64,000 nucleotides of DNA, taken from the NCBI GenBank assembly GCA_040081825.1, contig JBEBFT010000004.1, positions 11,523 through 75,522 on the forward strand, in the 5' to 3' direction. The DNA is from Candidatus Peribacteraceae bacterium. GTDB lineage: Bacteria > Patescibacteriota > Gracilibacteria > Peribacterales > Peribacteraceae. Positions 4,624-63,128 of the stretch are shown here, piece after piece. A program made the position numbers and the translations under genes. How positions within the stretch are numbered: position 1 is the first letter of the stretch; every line of letters begins with the position of its first letter. Under the pieces are notes generated by a model, which saw only the letters and a program-made list of their open reading frames with translations, searched no databases and had not been told where the DNA came from.

Positions 4624-5625
4624 ATGTCAAACCTCGATCAATATACGATTTACGTGCCCTCTGACCAAAAAATGAGGCTTTTGGGAGCGTCTCTAGCCCA
4701 CTCCCTGTACCGCCCTCGTCTGACAATCGATCTGGTTGGTGATCTGGGTGCAGGCAAGACGACGTTCGTACAGGGGCTCGCACATGGGTTAAGAATCGAA
4801 ACTCCAGTCACCAGCCCAACGTTTGCTCTGGAAGAACGGCACGACGACAGGCTTTGTCACATCGATCTCTGTCGACTGAACAAGGAAGCGAGTGAACAAC
4901 TGCTTAGGCACTCCGATGACTTCCCGGGCATTCGCGTGATCGAATGGGCGAACAGGAGTACTGCTCACGATGCGGATCTTCGTATCACGATTGATGATGT
5001 TGGAAATGATGCGAGACGCATTACCATCGAATGTCGAGACGTAGCGATCCCGACAGATCAAGAAATCCATGCTCTCTGGGACGAAGTCGCACTGCCGCAA
5101 CATATCCGAAATCACATCACGCAAGTGTCGCTCGTCACAGAGAAAGTCTGCAAGGATTTGCTGAGACAGTGCCGTGCTGTGCGTCCTCGTGCTGTGCGTG
5201 CTGCTGCACTACTACATGATCTCCTTCGTTTCGTTGATTTCCGATCGATGCAGGGAGATGAATATTTTATTCCCGACGCACGCACGACTGCTGTGTGGCA
5301 GAAAATGAAAGAACAATTCGGGACACCGCATGAGCCAGCTGCAGCGCGGCTACTCACAGAACAGGGTTTTCCAGACATTGCTCGCATTGTCTCGACCCAT
5401 CGAGGAAAGAGTGAGGACGATCTGATGCATACAACGATCGAACAGCAGGTGCTCGCGTATGCGGACAAACGAGTGGATCTCGACAAAATAGTGAGCTTAG
5501 ACGAACGATTTCACTCACTGATTGATCGACATCAGAAAAACGCGAGTGACCCCAAGGAACTCGCATGGCAAGAATCGATGCGTCTCCTAGAGCGCAATCT
5601 ACTGCCCGATGGTCTAGATCTCTAA
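4624..5625 (+). CDS. tsaE: TsaE (t6A biosynthesis ATPase) fused to a C-terminal HD-domain phosphohydrolase
   Basis: The N-terminal ~150 aa carry the P-loop GDLGAGKTTFVQGLAHGL plus SPTFAL. The C-terminal ~180 aa carry an HD signature (AALLHDLLRF ... STHRG). Confidence 0.8.
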   Translation: MSNLDQYTIYVPSDQKMRLLGASLAHSLYRPRLTIDLVGDLGAGKTTFVQGLAHGLRIETPVTSPTFALEERHDDRLCHIDLCRLNKEASEQLLRHSDDFPGIRVIEWANRSTAHDADLRITIDDVGNDARRITIECRDVAIPTDQEIHALWDEVALPQHIRNHITQVSLVTEKVCKDLLRQCRAVRPRAVRAAALLHDLLRFVDFRSMQGDEYFIPDARTTAVWQKMKEQFGTPHEPAAARLLTEQGFPDIARIVSTHRGKSEDDLMHTTIEQQVLAYADKRVDLDKIVSLDERFHSLIDRHQKNASDPKELAWQESMRLLERNLLPDGLDL

Positions 5626-6206
5626 AGCGATAGATTCAGTTCCTCTGCGATAATCAGAGAGACACTGTGACCATTCTGAGCAACGAACGGGACAGCGATG
5701 AGAAGCAGTATGAGTGTTACAACAATCGTGATGAGAGACCACTTCTCAACACGCGTGAAAGATTGATCGATGTCTGGATGTGGACTATGCATGTACTCGT
5801 GAATATTCATGCCAACGACGACTGCATGCTGGAGAATGCTTGTCTCAGGAATCAGCATGCCGAGAGCACGCACAATCGTAAGCTGAGAACGCATCAGACC
5901 GCTGACGGAAGAAAGTAAGAATGTATGGTGAAGATAGACTGCAAACGTGATCGCAGTGAGCAAGAGTGCGATATCCGAAGCGCTCTCCAGCAACACAGCC
6001 TTCAGTGTGCGCAGCGTGGAATATCCATGTACTTCACGATACTTCACGATGTCCAAACTCATGTGCAGGACAATGAGAAGAAGAAACCAACCCAGACTGA
6101 GTAGTGCTGCGGCGAGAATAGTTCCCACCAAATACACAGCAGTAAATGCTGGCATGTCATCATGCTCGTGCGCGAAAGTGCGAAAATATTGAAGAGGGAG
6201 GTGCAT
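5622..6206 (-). CDS. hypothetical multi-pass membrane protein
   Basis: 194-aa ORF with about 5 hydrophobic helices. Its 3' end overlaps the stop of the tsaE-HD gene by 4 nt (convergent). No family recognised. Confidence 0.5.
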   Translation of the reverse strand: MHLPLQYFRTFAHEHDDMPAFTAVYLVGTILAAALLSLGWFLLLIVLHMSLDIVKYREVHGYSTLRTLKAVLLESASDIALLLTAITFAVYLHHTFLLSSVSGLMRSQLTIVRALGMLIPETSILQHAVVVGMNIHEYMHSPHPDIDQSFTRVEKWSLITIVVTLILLLIAVPFVAQNGHSVSLIIAEELNLSL

Positions 6207-6264
6207 GTGTGTTTTAATTACTATAACACATATTTTATGTTAGTGCAATTCCCCTTTTTGGCTA

Positions 6265-6969
6265 TTACCAGCGGAAGATCGTGAAGTCAGTATCACGATC
6301 GTACTGATCCAGAGACTCCTGACGTTTAAGGAAGCCTACGACTCGGTATGTGACTGGTGTGAAGAGTACTTCGATCAGCACTTTGAAGATGTAGTTTGAG
6401 AGGATGAGACTGACTGCGATCTCCCACGGGAATACTCCTAGTACGCAGGCGATGAGGACAAATGTTGTCGTATCGACTGCCTGTCCGAAGAGTGTGGAGC
6501 CGATCGTGCGCATCCAGAGCATGCGACCCTGCATCGCTATCTTCATTTTCGCGAGGACAAAAGAGTTGCTGAACGCTCCGAAGAGAAACGCAACAAGACT
6601 CGCGACCATGATACTGCCGCTTGCGACACCCCCCAGAATGGAACTGAACGCTGCGTCGCCTGCATATCCCTGCCAAGCGGATTCACCGGGCATAGCGCTC
6701 ACAAGTGCCAAAGACACACTCATGAGTGCGAGTGAGAAAAACCCGAGCCAGATCACACGCCGTGCGCGGGCATAGCCATATACTTCAGTCAGTACGTCTC
6801 CGAAGATGTAGCTGATCGGAAAAAGCAGTGTGCCCGCATCGAAACTAAGACGCAGACCCAGCAAACCTACACCCCAATCGATGATTTTCGCGGACGACGC
6901 AACATTGCTCGTGAGGATCACAGCAACGAAGAGTGCGACGATGGCATCGAAATAGCGATATGTTTTCAT
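6265..6969 (-). CDS. yhhQ: queuosine-precursor transporter (YhhQ/DUF165 family)
   Basis: 234-aa polytopic membrane protein with FPISYIFGDVLTEVYGY and a C-terminal VDTTTFVLIA block typical of YhhQ. Confidence 0.85.
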   Translation of the reverse strand: MKTYRYFDAIVALFVAVILTSNVASSAKIIDWGVGLLGLRLSFDAGTLLFPISYIFGDVLTEVYGYARARRVIWLGFFSLALMSVSLALVSAMPGESAWQGYAGDAAFSSILGGVASGSIMVASLVAFLFGAFSNSFVLAKMKIAMQGRMLWMRTIGSTLFGQAVDTTTFVLIACVLGVFPWEIAVSLILSNYIFKVLIEVLFTPVTYRVVGFLKRQESLDQYDRDTDFTIFRW

Positions 6970-6996
6970 CCTGCATAGGATACAGAAAATCGACGG

Positions 6997-7128
6997 TTAG
7001 TTGAAGTATGCCAGTGTTTCTCCAATCTCTGATTCGCTCAACCTCATCGCGCGCTCCCGAGCTTCCTGCATTTGAATGAGTAAACGAGCATGCGCATTTT
7101 GCTGGTTTCGCTGCTCCTTGGTCATCAT
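6997..7128 (-). CDS. candidate 43-aa small protein upstream of yhhQ
   Basis: Not in the ORF track (<60 aa). ATGATG start at 7128, TAA stop at 6999-6997, translation MMTKEQRNQQNAHARLLIQMQEARERAMRLSESEIGETLAYFN. A GGAG lies 8 nt upstream of the ATG. The ORF ends 27 nt before the yhhQ start. Confidence 0.3.
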   Translation of the reverse strand: MMTKEQRNQQNAHARLLIQMQEARERAMRLSESEIGETLAYFN

Positions 7129-7197
7129 TGGAACTCCAATGAGAGAACGCGGTCCTGTCGGGTAGTGTGTGAACATTTGAAATAGGTAGTAATAAAT

Positions 7198-7225
7198 AAA
7201 AAAACCTCTTCCAGATCGGGAGAGG
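7198..7225 (-). terminator. intrinsic terminator (8-bp stem, 5-nt loop, U7 tract) on the minus strand
   Basis: Minus-strand RNA is CCUCUCCC-GAUCU-GGAAGAGG followed by UUUUUUUAUUUAUU. It lies upstream of the 43-codon ORF and yhhQ, which is a leader position, not an end-of-operon position. Confidence 0.6.
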
Positions 7226-7254
7226 CGGATGAATGCGTTGATCTCTCGATCACT

Positions 7255-7359
7255 CTACGCACTCACGACCTCTCCCCTGCTAAAGAAGCAGAAGAAAGAG
7301 AACGTAAATGTGGAAGAGTGAGAAATCACGCGGGCAGAATCTACGCGAAAATGCCGCAA
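7255..7359 (-). promoter_or_regulatory. candidate leader peptide ORF (34 codons from TTG 7359, or 24 from GTG 7329) inside an attenuator-like leader
   Basis: Translation is MRHFRVDSARVISHSSTFTFSFFCFFSRGEVVSA, with TAG at 7257-7255. It overlaps the complementary segments 7318-7312 and 7277-7269, which can pair with each other or with the arms of the terminator. Confidence 0.3.
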
Positions 7360-7427
7360 CGAGTCAAATCTGGATAATCAGTTGCCCTGTTCAAAGTGAT
7401 TATTATCGTCTATCGTGTCCGTCAGTC

Positions 7428-7503
7428 CGGGACGTAGCTCAGTTGGTAGAGCGCCTGGTTTGGGACCAGGAGGCCGCGAGTTCGAGTCCCGCCGTCCCGA
7501 CCA
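7428..7503 (+). tRNA. tRNA-Pro (anticodon UGG), CCA encoded
   Basis: Cloverleaf read by eye: acceptor CGGGACG/CGTCCCG, D arm GCTC-AGTTGGTA-GAGC, anticodon arm CCTGG-TTTGGGA-CCAGG, T loop TTCGAGT, then ACCA. Confidence 0.95.
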
Positions 7504-7724
7504 CTTCTCGCTACGCTCGAAGTGACAAAGAATCCCTATGATAGGACGAGAAGCCTGTCCTGAGCGAGCCCCGAGCTTGCGAGGGGCGAGTCGAAGGAAG
7601 TCCCGCCGTCCCGACCACTTCTCGCTACGCTCGAAGTGACAACGAATCCCTATGATAGGACGAGAAGCCTGTCCTGAGCGAGCTTGCGAGGGGCGAGTCG
7701 AAGGAAGTCCCGCCGTCCCGACCA
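7504..7724 (+). repeat. two tandem cassettes (114 and 107 bp), each ending in a 19-nt copy of the tRNA-Pro 3' end
   Basis: AGTCCCGCCGTCCCGACCA occurs at 7485-7503 (the tRNA), 7599-7617 and 7706-7724. The two units differ by one A/C substitution and a 7-nt indel. Confidence 0.9.
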
Positions 7725-7730
7725 TATCCA

Positions 7731-8201
7731 ATGAACGCCAATCTCTCTTGTAGGCAAACTGTCGTGCTTGCTGTTCTTTGTTTGTCATTTGCAAGCTGCG
7801 CTCACTCTACTGATCCTGAGGAATCAGGATTACGCATCCCAAGGTCAGGTAGTGCACTGCTCTCATCTGTGGAAGCCTATGCAACTCAGCAATATAGAGA
7901 ACAGGAAGCGAGCGGGCGCTCTGCATGTAGCGGCATCCTCTATGGATATGACGACCAGTACGTCCATACCTGGATGCTCTGCGAAAATTTTTCTGATACT
8001 ACTGTCATCAGTGCGTACAGTTCCCCTGTCCGATTCACTCGTTCGAAAGAAGGGATCATCATCGGCATGGAGAGACCCAAAGATGGCGTCTTCTTTCAGG
8101 AATCCGTAGAAAGCCTCTTTCCCGCCAGCATCGTCACTCACCTGCAACCATCGAACATAGAGATAGATAGGCTAGAGAAGCGAAATAGAGTAAACAGATA
8201 A
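7731..8201 (+). CDS. putative lipoprotein, function unknown
   Basis: 156 aa. The N-terminal signal has a lipobox-like LSFASC. Confidence 0.5.
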   Translation: MNANLSCRQTVVLAVLCLSFASCAHSTDPEESGLRIPRSGSALLSSVEAYATQQYREQEASGRSACSGILYGYDDQYVHTWMLCENFSDTTVISAYSSPVRFTRSKEGIIIGMERPKDGVFFQESVESLFPASIVTHLQPSNIEIDRLEKRNRVNR

Positions 8202-9299
8202 TTGAATGCGATAATCAAAGGACGCTACACTCTATACGCTATGTTCGCCGTGCGACTTCCCTCTTATCCTCGGCGTACTACAACCTTGTCGATTGTGCTC
8301 ATTGGATATTCGTTCGTTCTGATCCCAGGAATCATGAGAGCAGAACCACTCACAATCACTCCCTCGCTCATTAGTAATACACAAATGCTTGAGAAGGCAC
8401 TGACTGCGAAGGAGGGATACGCATCGACAACACTCAAAGGGGCAGGCGCATTTTTGGAGATCGAGTACTTCTCATCAGAGGACATCGACCTTTTTTTAGT
8501 TCCTCTCAACCGCGATGGTAGGTATGTTCCAACGGATTTCATGACTGCCAAGCTGCCGGCTGCAGCTAACGGAGATGTACGAATTGACCTGCGCGAGACA
8601 CCAGGATGGAAGACATCTGAAACATTGTGGCTTCTCAATATCGCAAGTAGCAGCACCGATACGGATGCGGGGTTCACAGGAATCGAGTTCGTCCCTGCGT
8701 CACCGATCGAAACACTGTCTGCTGCCATGACGCACCTTAGTATCGCCGAGCCCTACGGTCCAAGCAGTTACCACGTACTCAGAGGATATAGAGTGTTGGG
8801 TCTGTCCTTCGCTGTACTGCTTGGACTCATCACCATAATCATCGCACTGATCGTCTGGAGGATCCGTGGAGTCAGTACAGCGCTCTGGGTACTGGTCACG
8901 CTTACACTTCTCTCGCATCTTCGCTACGGCATCGATCTGCTCCGCTTCTCGCACGAGCATCTGACAAGTATGCAGACGGCATCAATCTACGATGAAGCGG
9001 GAACCATCTACGCAGTCGCCGAGTCGATCAAGGAAATACGAATGAAGGAGCAGCGATTTGGCGGAGTCTTCGTCTGTAGAAACGGCACCGACTTTCAGGA
9101 AAAGATATTACGGTACCAGCTCTACCCAACTCCGGTGAGCCACAATGGGGATGGTCCGTTTTCTTTTGTCGTCATCATCGGATCACCAGATTGGTCGCAG
9201 GACGAAGCATCGATTCGTTGCGGTGACGGGCAGTTTCTCCGGATATCATCTCAGTATTTCAGCGACGGGATTTCACTCCACACAACGCAAAAATCATGA
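8202..9299 (+). CDS. hypothetical membrane protein
   Basis: 365-aa ORF with a TTG start abutting the upstream stop (ATG 8241 is an alternative). It has an N-terminal TM/signal and a mid-protein TM segment. It overlaps the next gene by 4 nt (ATGA). Confidence 0.5.
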   Translation: MNAIIKGRYTLYAMFAVRLPSYPRRTTTLSIVLIGYSFVLIPGIMRAEPLTITPSLISNTQMLEKALTAKEGYASTTLKGAGAFLEIEYFSSEDIDLFLVPLNRDGRYVPTDFMTAKLPAAANGDVRIDLRETPGWKTSETLWLLNIASSSTDTDAGFTGIEFVPASPIETLSAAMTHLSIAEPYGPSSYHVLRGYRVLGLSFAVLLGLITIIIALIVWRIRGVSTALWVLVTLTLLSHLRYGIDLLRFSHEHLTSMQTASIYDEAGTIYAVAESIKEIRMKEQRFGGVFVCRNGTDFQEKILRYQLYPTPVSHNGDGPFSFVVIIGSPDWSQDEASIRCGDGQFLRISSQYFSDGISLHTTQKS

Positions 9300-18441: not shown

Positions 18442-18960
18442 ATGAGACAAAAACCCGGTCATAATTTTCCACCTGAACTTGAAAAAAGCAGGTCCCATAT
18501 CAACCGTGAGGGACGAATGCAGTTTTCATTGCTGCATGTCTTACTTCTCACGGCAGTTGTGGGTGGAGGAATAGTCAGCGTCATGCAGTGGAATAGAAGT
18601 AAAGTTTTGCACAATTCTCGCCAACTTTGGGAGGATGCTCAGGACAACGTCTTAGACAACTTTGATATAGATGATATGTTGAGAAATTTGCCGGAAAAGT
18701 ATTCTATTCGAGACATCCCAGCCACAAGAAAAGAAATCATGTTTCGTTTATGGAACCAGTTAAAAATAGATGCAAATAAGGGCAATCTTGATCCTGATTG
18801 GAGTCTGCAATTCATTCAGAGACTCACCAAGTCTTTACGAAAAGATGGAGAAACAGATATATCGTTCGAGGAAATCGGAGTAACGAAAGAAGATATAGAA
18901 AAATTATTTGAGAGATCATCACAGATAAAAGCGCAGCGCGATGAAGTACGTGAGGAATAG
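18442..18960 (+). CDS. hypothetical protein with one N-terminal TM helix (orphan, low GC)
   Basis: 172-aa ORF. The alternative start ATG 18517 (MQFSLLHVLLLTAVVGGG) is also possible. Confidence 0.45.
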   Translation: MRQKPGHNFPPELEKSRSHINREGRMQFSLLHVLLLTAVVGGGIVSVMQWNRSKVLHNSRQLWEDAQDNVLDNFDIDDMLRNLPEKYSIRDIPATRKEIMFRLWNQLKIDANKGNLDPDWSLQFIQRLTKSLRKDGETDISFEEIGVTKEDIEKLFERSSQIKAQRDEVREE

Positions 18961-39377: not shown

Positions 39378-40403
39378 TTACACGCGATTGCGTGATCTAC
39401 TATGCAGTGTGCCCGCGTATAGAGCCACAAGCGTCAGGGCTAGAAGCACCACTCCTTCAGGCCCAGATTGGGTAAGGTGTGTTGGCTTCTTGATAGCTGG
39501 AGTAGAAGAAGACGAGGAAGTGAAGAGCGGTGGGCGTACGGTAACAACAGAAGCAACAGCAGTCTTCACGGAAGACGTAGCGGAAGAAGCGACGGAAGCT
39601 GAGGATGTTTTTCCAGAATCGCTATTTTTACCATCCCACCAGGCGAGCATATCTGCACCCATTCCACCGCCGCGCTTCAGAGTGTTTTTCTGACGCTGCA
39701 CGATATAACCCACACGCTTTTTAGCAATGGCGAACACTTCAGGGACCGACAGAGAGCTCTTGCTCTGATCGTAGGGGAAGAAGGCTCGTGCAAGTTCAGG
39801 ATTGATATTGAGGGACTCAGCCGAAAATGCGAGTGATGCGAAGAGCGCGCCGACCAGAACCATCGCACCGATGCGTGCCGCCTTTCTCCTGATGACATGC
39901 GAAGCAAAGACAGCAATGAAGAATAGGCCGAGTGCCACAAGTGGCATAGACCAAAGGTAGAAGAACCCGAGCCTGAGGACCTCCAAAATATTCATGTATG
40001 GCGCAGTGATGTGCATGACCATCCAGAGGAAGAACATACCCGCTGGAAACCAATGGAGAAGACGGAACTCGTAATCAGCACGATTCGATCGAAAGGTGCG
40101 TCGTAGGATAAGAGGATAGGCAATCGAAACGACGAAACCCGTAGCCCAGTACCACAGCCCCTGTGGAAGGACCGGCAGTAATGACAAATAGACACCTGCA
40201 AGACAGATTATGAGGCCTAGAACAATCAGATACGCCGTTTCTGTGTGATGCTTTAAAGGCATGGAGGATTGTGGATTCTCCCGAAACACACTTCCAATGT
40301 CAAGTCTTCTAAACTTCATCAAAAAGCCGATACCGAAGCCATGTGCGGACTCCCCTCTATTTCTTCTTCTTAGGCAGATAGCGATCGTACTCCGATGGCG
40401 CAC
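39378..40403 (-). CDS. hypothetical polytopic membrane protein with a Ser-rich C-terminal region
   Basis: 341-aa ORF with about 6 TM helices and a SASVASSATSSVKTAVASV low-complexity tail. Confidence 0.5.
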   Translation of the reverse strand: MRHRSTIAICLRRRNRGESAHGFGIGFLMKFRRLDIGSVFRENPQSSMPLKHHTETAYLIVLGLIICLAGVYLSLLPVLPQGLWYWATGFVVSIAYPLILRRTFRSNRADYEFRLLHWFPAGMFFLWMVMHITAPYMNILEVLRLGFFYLWSMPLVALGLFFIAVFASHVIRRKAARIGAMVLVGALFASLAFSAESLNINPELARAFFPYDQSKSSLSVPEVFAIAKKRVGYIVQRQKNTLKRGGGMGADMLAWWDGKNSDSGKTSSASVASSATSSVKTAVASVVTVRPPLFTSSSSSTPAIKKPTHLTQSGPEGVVLLALTLVALYAGTLHSRSRNRV

Positions 40404-40800
40404 TCACCATCCGCTCTACGGTGTAGTGCCGACGCTGGAACTGCCAAAACTGGAACAGTACGTATAAACCTAAACAGAATGCCCAGAGCAGCCACAGCAC
40501 GCGCATCGAAAGAAATTGAATCTGTTCAACTCGACTCACGGTGAGGAAAAGTCCCAGAATACCAAACCACATACATGCACTAGACCAGCTACGAGAGAGT
40601 GTCTTGGTCATGCCAGTCGCAAGCTTCCTGCGCCATCCCTTCAATAGAAATGATAGAACAATCAGAGCAGCGGAGATCGACAGAAGGAGAAGGACTGAGT
40701 TCGTAGAGTACGTCCAACCTGCGGGATTAGGCCAAAGCCAGTATGTGAGAAACTGCGTCATAGTGAATGGACTATAGGAAATAGAGGGTATCTCCGTCAA
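40357..40800 (-). CDS. hypothetical membrane protein
   Basis: 147-aa ORF with 3-4 TM helices, in an overlapping gene chain with its neighbours. Confidence 0.45.
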   Translation of the reverse strand: MTEIPSISYSPFTMTQFLTYWLWPNPAGWTYSTNSVLLLLSISAALIVLSFLLKGWRRKLATGMTKTLSRSWSSACMWFGILGLFLTVSRVEQIQFLSMRVLWLLWAFCLGLYVLFQFWQFQRRHYTVERMVSAPSEYDRYLPKKKK

Positions 40801-62468: not shown

Positions 62469-62544
62469 GGATCGGTAGCTCAGTTGGTAGAGCAGGAGAC
62501 TCTTAATCTCTTGGTCGTGGGTTCAAGTCCCACCCGATCCACCA
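62469..62544 (+). tRNA. tRNA-Lys (anticodon CUU), CCA encoded
   Basis: GGATCGGTAGCTCAGTTGGTAGAGCAGGAGACTCTTAATCTCTTGGTCGTGGGTTCAAGTCCCACCCGATCCACCA. The anticodon loop is CTCTTAA. Confidence 0.93.
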
Positions 62545-63128
62545 ACATTACTATCTTCATTGTCACAGCTAGGGTGCCAATCTTTCATTGTCTCTCTTCG
62601 TAGTGTCAGGATTTGTTCCGCCAATTCATTGTCTACCTCTCGATGATTGAGAGTTAAATGTTTTTCTTCGGATACTCGCACTATTTCCAATCTCAGCTCA
62701 ATAATTATTCGGCTCAATTGATCCGCTAATGCATCACGAATTTCTTGGCCTACAGGTAAGGAATCATTTCCTAGGCCTGTATCGCTTTCCCAGACGAGTG
62801 TCAGATTTTCTCGTGCAAGCGGTATCCCTTTGGATTTCGGTCCGAAGGCATCTCCTAGAAGAACTTGGAGTCGATGTCTTGTTTCAATCACTTCAAAAAT
62901 AAATTGGATTTGAAGATTTTTATTTGTGCTTCTACCACCACGAGAATGCATGCGCACGCTGCAGTGAGGGCTACCACTACTCTTATCTACCTCTATGTCG
63001 ATCCACGGCCCATCGTATACTTGGATAGTTGGAACCTCGAGTGCATCAAGCTCAAGAATAGCTTGTTCCAGAGCCAATTCCCGACTGTTTTCTTGCAGGG
63101 TGTGCTGCAGTCCTTTAGAAGGATTCAT
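62523..63128 (-). CDS. hypothetical protein (orphan, low GC) whose last 22 nt are antisense to the tRNA-Lys 3' end
   Basis: 201-aa track ORF. The C-terminal VGGSGGT is encoded by the complement of the tRNA T-arm and acceptor. Confidence 0.45.
   Translation of the reverse strand: MNPSKGLQHTLQENSRELALEQAILELDALEVPTIQVYDGPWIDIEVDKSSGSPHCSVRMHSRGGRSTNKNLQIQFIFEVIETRHRLQVLLGDAFGPKSKGIPLARENLTLVWESDTGLGNDSLPVGQEIRDALADQLSRIIIELRLEIVRVSEEKHLTLNHREVDNELAEQILTLRRETMKDWHPSCDNEDSNVGGSGGT

Follow-up and report, generated by a model that had tools for sequence, protein, structure and literature searches.

What controls a transporter gene in a bacterium of the candidate phyla radiation (CPR), a group in which very little gene regulation has been described? 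The question is raised by the minus strand of a 64-kb stretch of DNA, here called the window, to which all coordinates below refer, from a Candidatus Peribacteraceae bacterium (CPR, Peregrinibacteria). In this stretch a leader at about 7367-7198 is followed by an open reading frame (ORF) of 59 codons, referred to as ORF2 (7176-6997), by yhhQ (6969-6265), which encodes a queuosine-precursor transporter of the YhhQ family, and by the gene for a membrane protein of 194 amino acids (aa). A preliminary description had likened the leader to an attenuator, with four mutually exclusive pairing segments and a mini-ORF rich in phenylalanine (Phe) codons. The comparisons and folding predictions described here indicate that this is a real and selected bistable leader with a terminator. 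The reading that we tentatively favour is that of a leaderless Phe-codon transcription attenuator of the pheL/trpL type, which would be adapted to an organism where Shine-Dalgarno (SD) sequences are scarce and genes are of the leaderless type.

All four segments (seg1 to seg4), the U7 tract and the Phe-rich frame were reproduced exactly as first described, both as strings and in their minus-strand coordinates. A homologous leader was found in a second Peribacteraceae lineage (Logan contigs L162-L165 of the P0002 lineage, from four Sequence Read Archive runs; hereafter L162), whose YhhQ protein is 77% identical to that of the window. The parts of the leader are listed here in the order of their transcription.

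7338..7367, minus strand: promoter-like site, consisting of TTGACT, an 18-nucleotide (nt) spacer and TAGATT, with the −10 hexamer ending 8 nt before GTG 7329.
7255..7329, minus strand: putative leaderless leader ORF (the mini-ORF), GTG plus 23 codons plus TAG (7257-7255), encoding (M)ISHSSTFTFSFFCFFSRGEVVSA.
7318-7312, minus strand: seg1, CUCUUCC, which in the window is more complementary to seg4 than to seg2.
7260..7310, minus strand: rod hairpin core, made up of an outer 8-base-pair (bp) stem (7310-7303 with 7267-7260), the inner helix and a loop.
7282..7308, minus strand: Phe-codon run, UUU ACG UUC UCU UUC UUC UGC UUC UUU, six Phe in nine codons.
7287..7299, minus strand: 5′ arm of the inner 13-bp helix, UCUUUCUUCUGCU, within the Phe codons; in minimum-energy folds it sequesters seg2 as the predicted anti-antiterminator arm.
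7269..7281, minus strand: 3′ arm of the inner helix, AGCAGGGGAGAGG, which contains seg2, alternatively pairs with seg3 and is invariant in L162.
7277-7269, minus strand: seg2, GGGGAGAGG, inside the 3′ arm of the inner helix.
7231..7264, minus strand: GAGUGCGU...ACGCAUUC hairpin, including the U of the stop codon and, when the antiterminator forms, stacked beneath seg2:seg3.
7217..7228, minus strand: seg3 block, CCGCCTCTCCCG, serving as terminator 5′ arm or, in the antiterminator, pairing with seg2; 12/12 positions match L162, with diverged sequence on both sides.
7225-7218, minus strand: seg3, CCUCUCCC, terminator 5′ arm or seg2 partner.
7198..7226, minus strand: intrinsic terminator, stem GCCUCU-C-CC, loop GAUCU, stem GG-A-AGAGGU, then U7; −10.4 kcal/mol.
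7212-7205, minus strand: seg4, GGAAGAGG, terminator 3′ arm.
7204-7198, minus strand: U7 tract, directly 3′ of the terminator stem.

The proposal that seg3 and seg4, together with U7, make up an intrinsic terminator was borne out, as hairpin 7226-7204 stands immediately before the U tract and upstream of both ORF2 and yhhQ. The stem contains a C/A mismatch, which is probably the reason why a simple terminator scan did not list it. Its plus-strand version lacks a T run, so the terminator is unidirectional; and because it lies on the minus strand inside a divergent intergenic region (7177-7427, between tRNA-Pro and ORF2), no upstream gene can own it. The competing helix, seg2:seg3, also holds as first described: the pairing is a perfect 8-9 bp, exclusive with the terminator and invariant in L162. 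The pattern GGGAGAGG-N20-50-CCTCTCCC, which captures the seg2/seg3 complement, is present once in the 64-kb window and in 0/100 of its dinucleotide shuffles.

Folding found the leader strongly structured by way of a rod between the Phe tract and seg2 and not by way of seg1:seg2. The RNA from 7331 to 7190 (142 nt) folds at −58.5 kcal/mol (z = −7.0). In its minimum-energy fold a 13-bp helix joins 7299-7287, within the Phe-codon tract, to 7281-7269 and, lengthened by an outer stem of 8 bp and a basal stem, forms a rod, after which come a separate hairpin (7226-7204) and U7. Seg1:seg2, the pairing originally offered as the operative anti-antiterminator, has to be given up in that role, since the minimum-energy fold avoids it, seg1 is not conserved in L162, and it is the invariant Phe tract that pairs with seg2. 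An 11-nt inverted repeat (7308-7318 and 7206-7216), 91% complementary, links seg1 to seg4 in the window, with a duplex energy of −13.0 (P = 0.02); when the window RNA adopts its antiterminator fold, the terminator 3′ arm is paired with the 5′ end of the RNA. In L162 the equivalent pairing does no better than chance (P = 0.4), and seg1:seg4 was rejected as a conserved helix because it is significant in the window only.

The fold that combines rod and terminator is predicted at −58.5 kcal/mol in the window, versus −54.7 for the seg2:seg3 fold, a gap of 3.8. The corresponding values in L162 are −44.8 and −45.4 kcal/mol, with a gap of 0.6, and there the seg2:seg3 fold is the minimum-energy one. 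By these models the terminator and antiterminator folds are near-isoenergetic in both lineages, and the RNAalifold consensus of the window and L162 sequences is the antiterminator. In the window the rod already reaches −48 kcal/mol before seg3 is transcribed. As it is made first and is very stable there, the kinetic default should be termination, in which case something must hold the 5′ arm open if seg2 is to reach seg3.

The case for selection comes from the comparison of the two lineages. The L162 lineage keeps the downstream synteny of the window, and at fourfold-degenerate sites the two are identical at 35% of positions in yhhQ, 41% in the 194-aa gene and 28% in tsaE, so that neutral sites are essentially saturated. 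The leader ORF is identical at 65/75 nt, with the same start, stop and length, and indels are found only outside it (1 + 2 nt upstream, 4 nt downstream). Seven of its codons have changed, four of them synonymously, and all six Phe codons are kept, with one UUC-to-UUU change. The 41-nt hairpin core 7305-7265 (ACGTTYTCTTTCTTCTGCTTCTTTAGCAGGGGAGAGGTCGT) is identical at 40/41 positions. UGCGU and ACGCA are conserved on either side of a diverged loop, where one G-U to G-C change retains the pair. Conservation of the core, of seg3 and of the ORF, set against saturated neutral sites, is strong evidence that the element is functional and under selection.

The terminator has had a different history from the core. 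In L162 divergence has affected the spacer that follows the stop codon as well as the terminator 3′ arm, and the terminator tail TTTTTTTATTTATT is conserved. The L162 terminator has a 3′ arm that differs (GAGAAGGUGG) and pairs CCGCCUCUC with GAG-A-AGGUGG in a shifted register (−13.5 kcal/mol), followed by CA and U7. Retention of the terminator despite a re-registered stem is good evidence, at the level of sequence comparison, that the hairpin and U tract are what is preserved. A gene has been called over the leader in L162; it lies in another frame.

Wider searches were made in two ways. YhhQ-anchored scans of genome and metagenome contigs gave 160 loci from Peribacteria, Chloroflexota and others, at up to 72% YhhQ identity, and the leader was sought with blastn, tblastn and nhmmer --max over 170 loci, including the closest Logan YhhQ relatives, plus the window. 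The leader and ORF2 were absent from all 160 YhhQ-anchored loci, which share only tRNA-Pro. Among close relatives, L166-L168 (YhhQ 76%) have an ACT-like ORF in place of the leader, and L170 (76%) and L171 (72%) have other neighbours there. No second copy of the element and no target-like site for it was found in the 170 loci and the window, and an exact-pattern scan of viral contigs gave no match. The idea that the leader terminator is a general yhhQ feature was rejected, as only 17/160 loci have a terminator-like hairpin within 450 nt upstream of yhhQ.

The start of the mini-ORF was the next matter to be settled. Of the two start codons suggested earlier, GTG 7329 is conserved and TTG 7359 was rejected: it falls inside the promoter-like site, in the spacer that separates the −35 and −10 hexamers, and L162 has indels of 1 nt and 2 nt that disrupt its frame. 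The promoter-like site is the sole minus-strand match of the promoter scan in 6000-8500 and aligns with TTGCAC-17-TTTACT in L162, which would place the transcription start at about 7331-7329. No SD was found before either GTG 7329 or TTG 7359. This absence is uninformative for the mini-ORF because the window as a whole is SD-scarce and has promoter spacing of the leaderless type. Upstream of the window's genes, SD-like 4-mers are not concentrated at any position; the 1-14 nt that precede start codons are enriched in TAnnnT hexamers; and near-consensus −35/−10 pairs, ending 6-9 nt before ATG, are present at several genes (for example 18442, 19411, 40357-40800 (minus strand) and 62523-63128 (minus strand)), some of them in the form TTGACA, 16-nt spacer, TAAAAT, 6 nt, ATG. 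The arrangement in the leader (TAGATT, 8 nt, GTG) is like that of the genes at 18442 and 19411. These patterns suggest that leaderless or very short-leader mRNAs are widespread in this genome, and Candidatus Peribacter riflensis is listed among SD-scarce organisms (PMC10783764). The mini-ORF may be translated from GUG 7329.

The codon content of the frame is also unusual. Given the base composition of the tract, at least six Phe codons are expected with P = 0.005 in a fixed frame and P = 0.008 in any frame. The 13-bp helix moreover contains four G.U pairs (U33, U36, U39 and U40) at positions where C, though it would make the helix stronger, would cost Phe codons.

On the favoured reading, transcription would start at about 7331-7329, at or beside GUG 7329, and the nascent RNA would fold into the rod, in which the Phe-codon tract 7299-7287 pairs with the seg2 region 7281-7269. 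Seg3 would then be free for seg4, and RNA polymerase would terminate at U7 (7204-7198), which would be the default outcome; a ribosome running through to UAG 7257 would cover seg2 and likewise lead to termination. A ribosome that started at the 5′ GUG and stalled on the early Phe codons would hold the 5′ arm of the rod open. Seg2 could then pair with the invariant seg3, in a helix that the UGCGU:ACGCA hairpin would lengthen; formation of the terminator would be blocked, and transcription would proceed into the 59-codon ORF2 and yhhQ, both of which read-through would feed. Termination in vivo would be expected from the predicted folds, and Phe-tRNA supply is the signal to which the codon run would point. 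The RNA was also folded with a 30-nt ribosome footprint masked and the A site moved codon by codon. For L162 this predicts the antiterminator when codons 1-2 or 8-15 (the Phe run) occupy the A site, and the terminator for codons 3-7 and 16-26. The antiterminator is predicted for codons 1-15 in the window. The leader has a terminator, mutually exclusive helices and a conserved Phe-rich ORF on the arm that sequesters seg2, and the second lineage keeps this design; the attenuator geometry proposed at the outset stands to that extent, and what falls is the identity of the sequestering arm, which is not seg1.

Several observations weigh against this interpretation. The downstream genes, an orphan ORF and a queuosine-precursor transporter, are unrelated to Phe biosynthesis, charging or uptake. 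We know of no link between Phe and queuosine (Q), which modifies tRNAs with GUN anticodons (Asp, Asn, His and Tyr). Ranked against 256 arms that preserve the pairing, the real arm reaches no more than the top quarter for Phe codons, and Phe, Leu or Ser codons arise in any case where a CU-rich arm has to pair with a GA-rich one. Third codon positions of the mini-ORF are identical at 20/25 sites, so RNA-level constraint alone could explain the kept frame and the absence of indels. The mini-ORF would start with GUG and has no SD. The L162 −10 hexamer (TTTACT) is weak and lacks an A at position 2, and as a same-strand tRNA-Pro lies directly upstream there, the 5′ end is uncertain. With the ribosome at the stop codon, the equilibrium fold of the window pairs seg1:seg4 and the terminator is not formed, so the termination branch rests on kinetics. 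The comparison with relatives, in which helices, frame and Phe codons proved to be kept in the L162 lineage, gave no compensatory double change among 27 consensus pairs of the two distinct sequences, only one-sided changes and the register shift, and hence no covariation proof. A −10-like hexamer precedes the yhhQ ATG in both lineages (TATCCT at 7 nt, window 6970-6985; TACTAT at 6 nt, L162:465-482), so that yhhQ may have a leaderless promoter of its own and may not depend wholly on the leader. Finally, the element is confined to two lineages.

In structure the window leader, as predicted, works like pheL, pheM or trpL, and it is the match between amino acid and target that fails. Shared with the E. 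coli leaders pheL (pheA leader), pheM (pheST leader) and trpL are a short ORF with a dense codon run on the arm that sequesters the antiterminator (a Phe run in pheL and pheM), the 1:2, 2:3 and 3:4 pairing that closes in an intrinsic terminator and U tract, and a stop codon placed so that a ribosome there covers segment 2. Unlike pheL and pheM, the window leader has no SD, and its GUG start is apparently at the 5′ end of the transcript (leaderless); the genes after it are an orphan 59-codon ORF and a queuosine-precursor transporter and not Phe biosynthesis or phenylalanyl-tRNA synthetase; it comes from a CPR bacterium; its 1:2 helix, at 13 + 8 bp plus a basal stem, is unusually long; and there is neither sequence homology nor an Rfam match.

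A precedent for the leaderless arrangement may be the polycysteine leaderless short ORF (sORF) attenuators of mycobacteria, in which, according to the abstract of the preprint (Canestrari et al., bioRxiv 10.1101/834739), a stalled ribosome remodels the downstream RNA and raises operon expression. These are likewise first-cistron leaderless short ORFs with an AUG or GUG start and one abundant amino acid. The same abstract has the mycobacterial sORFs freeing a sequestered ribosome-binding site, which makes the output translational, whereas the window element has an intrinsic terminator and its output would be transcriptional. The amino acid there also fits the function of the operon (Cys metabolism), which is not so for Phe in the window. 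By this analogy the leaderless-sORF idea is common to both, with a terminator as the presumed output here.

If the attenuator reading is correct, Phe-tRNA charging or general ribosome stalling would be a starvation signal that switches on scavenging transporters in a metabolically dependent organism; alternatively, this YhhQ-family protein would have a substrate other than queuosine precursors. The combination of Phe codons with a queuosine-precursor transporter would in either case be an unexpected regulatory link or put the annotated substrate in doubt, and a leaderless mini-ORF attenuator would show ribosome-coupled sensing where SD initiation is rare. A literature search found no paper linking CPR to attenuation or leader peptides. 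It is a more doubtful claim, though one worth stating, that this would be the first ribosome-mediated transcription attenuator described in a CPR bacterium, as far as found, with a leaderless GUG Phe-rich mini-ORF gating an orphan ORF and a YhhQ-family transporter. The claim is a modest one, as it concerns two closely related uncultured lineages and a mechanism inferred from sequence alone.

The alternatives depend in part on the features that flank the leader.

7428..7503, plus strand: tRNA-Pro(UGG), identified by Rfam scan, divergent from the leader and forming the upstream boundary of the element.
6997..7176, minus strand: ORF2, the orphan of 59 codons that comes first after the terminator; read from its internal ATG (7128) it has 43 codons.
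6265..6969, minus strand: yhhQ-family queuosine-precursor transporter gene (Pfam Vut_1, 3.4e-47; TIGR00697 equivalog, 111.6 bits versus a cut-off of 50.95), the presumed regulated gene; the encoded protein is identical to one annotated in a metagenome-assembled genome of Candidatus Peribacteraceae.

The first downstream ORF had earlier been taken to be one of 43 codons, which corresponds to the internal ATG; the conserved version is the 59-codon frame. A 67-codon ORF of L162/L163 (L163:229-432) shares the ATG and first codons of this frame, 22-25 nt after the U tract, and each of the two ORFs occupies the spacer up to 23-27 nt before yhhQ. ORF2 had no homologues among 5.8 billion proteins or 1.84 billion representatives, and BLASTP gave no match between its two versions. 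The two proteins share a C-terminal E.EIG....Y pattern and are otherwise unalignable (global alignment P = 0.03). Translation of the ORF2 spacer may be more important than its product. The promoter scan found no promoter-like site between the terminator and yhhQ.

On the upstream side, the relatives examined (L007, L014, L024, L081 and L162-L168) have tRNA-Pro in the orientation of yhhQ and directly upstream of it, at a distance of 15-170 nt in most Peribacteria (15 nt in L014). The tRNA is divergent from yhhQ in the window, and a second assembly, L161, agrees. This difference in orientation points to a local inversion, with the leader remaining beside yhhQ.

This layout bears most directly on the possibility, which we consider unlikely, that the leader is a stand-alone unit, either a small RNA (sRNA) of about 135 nt or the gene for a 24-residue small protein, with its own promoter and terminator. 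Such a unit would insulate ORF2 and yhhQ from upstream transcription, which in the ancestral layout is that of tRNA-Pro, and seg2:seg3 would serve RNA stability or trans-pairing. A promoter-like site and a terminator do bound a discrete unit, which in L162 comes directly after the same-strand tRNA-Pro, the gene that is immediately upstream of yhhQ in most Peribacteria, and the −10-like hexamer 6-7 nt before the yhhQ ATG in both lineages points the same way. Attenuator-derived RNAs such as rnTrpL of Sinorhizobium meliloti are reported to be able to act in trans (PMC6614838), and like rnTrpL the terminated window leader would be a structured sRNA of about 135 nt that also encodes a peptide. For the window leader there is no evidence of trans targets, an sRNA role is only a possible extra, and the searches showed neither a second copy nor a target-like site. 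A stand-alone unit would moreover have no reason to keep an invariant 8-9-nt seg2/seg3 complement or near-equal exclusive folds in both lineages, and the ORF2 start is conserved at its fixed distance after the U tract without a promoter-like site of its own. The element was also kept in the window after the tRNA inversion, so it is not merely the terminator of a tRNA transcript.

A further alternative, to which we give rather little weight, is a conditional terminator operated by RNA only, whose switch would respond to a small ligand, to uncharged tRNA, to an RNA-binding protein or to the kinetics of transcription, and in which the frame would be a by-product of the CU-rich arm. The third codon positions, which are as conserved as the others, point to RNA-level selection of this kind; the bistable folds, the missing SD and the GUG start are equally compatible with it. 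Its attractive version is a new queuosine-precursor riboswitch, since yhhQ is riboswitch-controlled elsewhere: preQ1 riboswitches (classes I-III) are known regulators of yhhQ/COG1738 genes (PMC10622847, PMC11625349), and E. coli yhhQ is under a type III preQ1-I riboswitch (PMC10622847). The window leader shares with these its position as the 5′ leader of a yhhQ-family gene and a possible terminator output. It differs in having no covariance-model match and no compact H-type pseudoknot, with a long rod and a coding-like frame in their place. An Rfam check matched no family to the leader: searches of 6000-9000 and of the 471-nt segment 6960-7430 at E ≤ 10 returned tRNA and meaningless microRNA-hairpin matches (15-16 bits), with no preQ1, T-box or PyrR element, and no preQ1 riboswitch reached the Rfam gathering score beside yhhQ in 18 related loci. 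Judged by these comparisons, the leader is not a preQ1 riboswitch. A riboswitch had at first been considered an equally open reading; it gains no support from Rfam and fits poorly with a rod that is long, paired almost throughout and leaves few conserved bases unpaired. At −48 kcal/mol in the window, such a sensor is unlike known aptamers and would be hard to open without a helicase such as the ribosome. An RNA-only switch would also leave the codon phasing (P = 0.005 above) and the kept start and stop codons unexplained.

That the element is a functionless relic or passenger of recombination at a tRNA-Pro hot spot (for example the scar of an integrated element), its pairing owed to repeated CU/GA-rich motifs, would fit the great variation that Peribacteria show in what separates tRNA-Pro from yhhQ (15 nt, an ACT-like ORF, partial tRNA copies), the inverted tRNA of the window, the att-like tRNA 3′-end repeats that adjoin tRNA-Pro and the presence in two lineages only, but it is unlikely given the conservation and, all told, very improbable, as the core is 98% identical where fourfold sites are saturated (28-41%), the terminator stem has been rebuilt and not decayed, and viral contigs held no match.

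Three minor features of the locus may be recorded. A plus-strand ORF of 30 codons (7229-7321), at which GGGAGAGG-CGG-ATG (the seg3 complement) resembles a good SD followed by ATG, was considered and rejected, as L162 has CTG for the ATG, a 4-nt indel shifts the frame and the organism rarely uses SD sequences. After tRNA-Pro(UGG), at 7485-7724 on the plus strand, the window has two direct-repeat units of 107-114 nt, each of which closes with a copy of the tRNA 3′ end (AGTCCCGCCGTCCCGACCA), so that this end is present in three copies in total. Partial tRNA copies with GGACGAGAAGCCTG.CCTGAGCG also follow tRNA-Pro in other Peribacteria (for example L007:3830-3945 and L166:2517-2590), and several assemblies break at these repeats, which by their sequence look like att-type scars or a recombination hot spot. 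Further along, at 4624-5625 on the plus strand, a TsaE domain is fused to an HD domain in a single 333-aa protein, the gene for which overlaps the 3′ end of the 194-aa membrane-protein gene with its own 3′ end by 4 nt; the L162 and L166 lineages retain both the fusion and its synteny (yhhQ, 194-aa gene, TsaE-HD, M23 peptidase).

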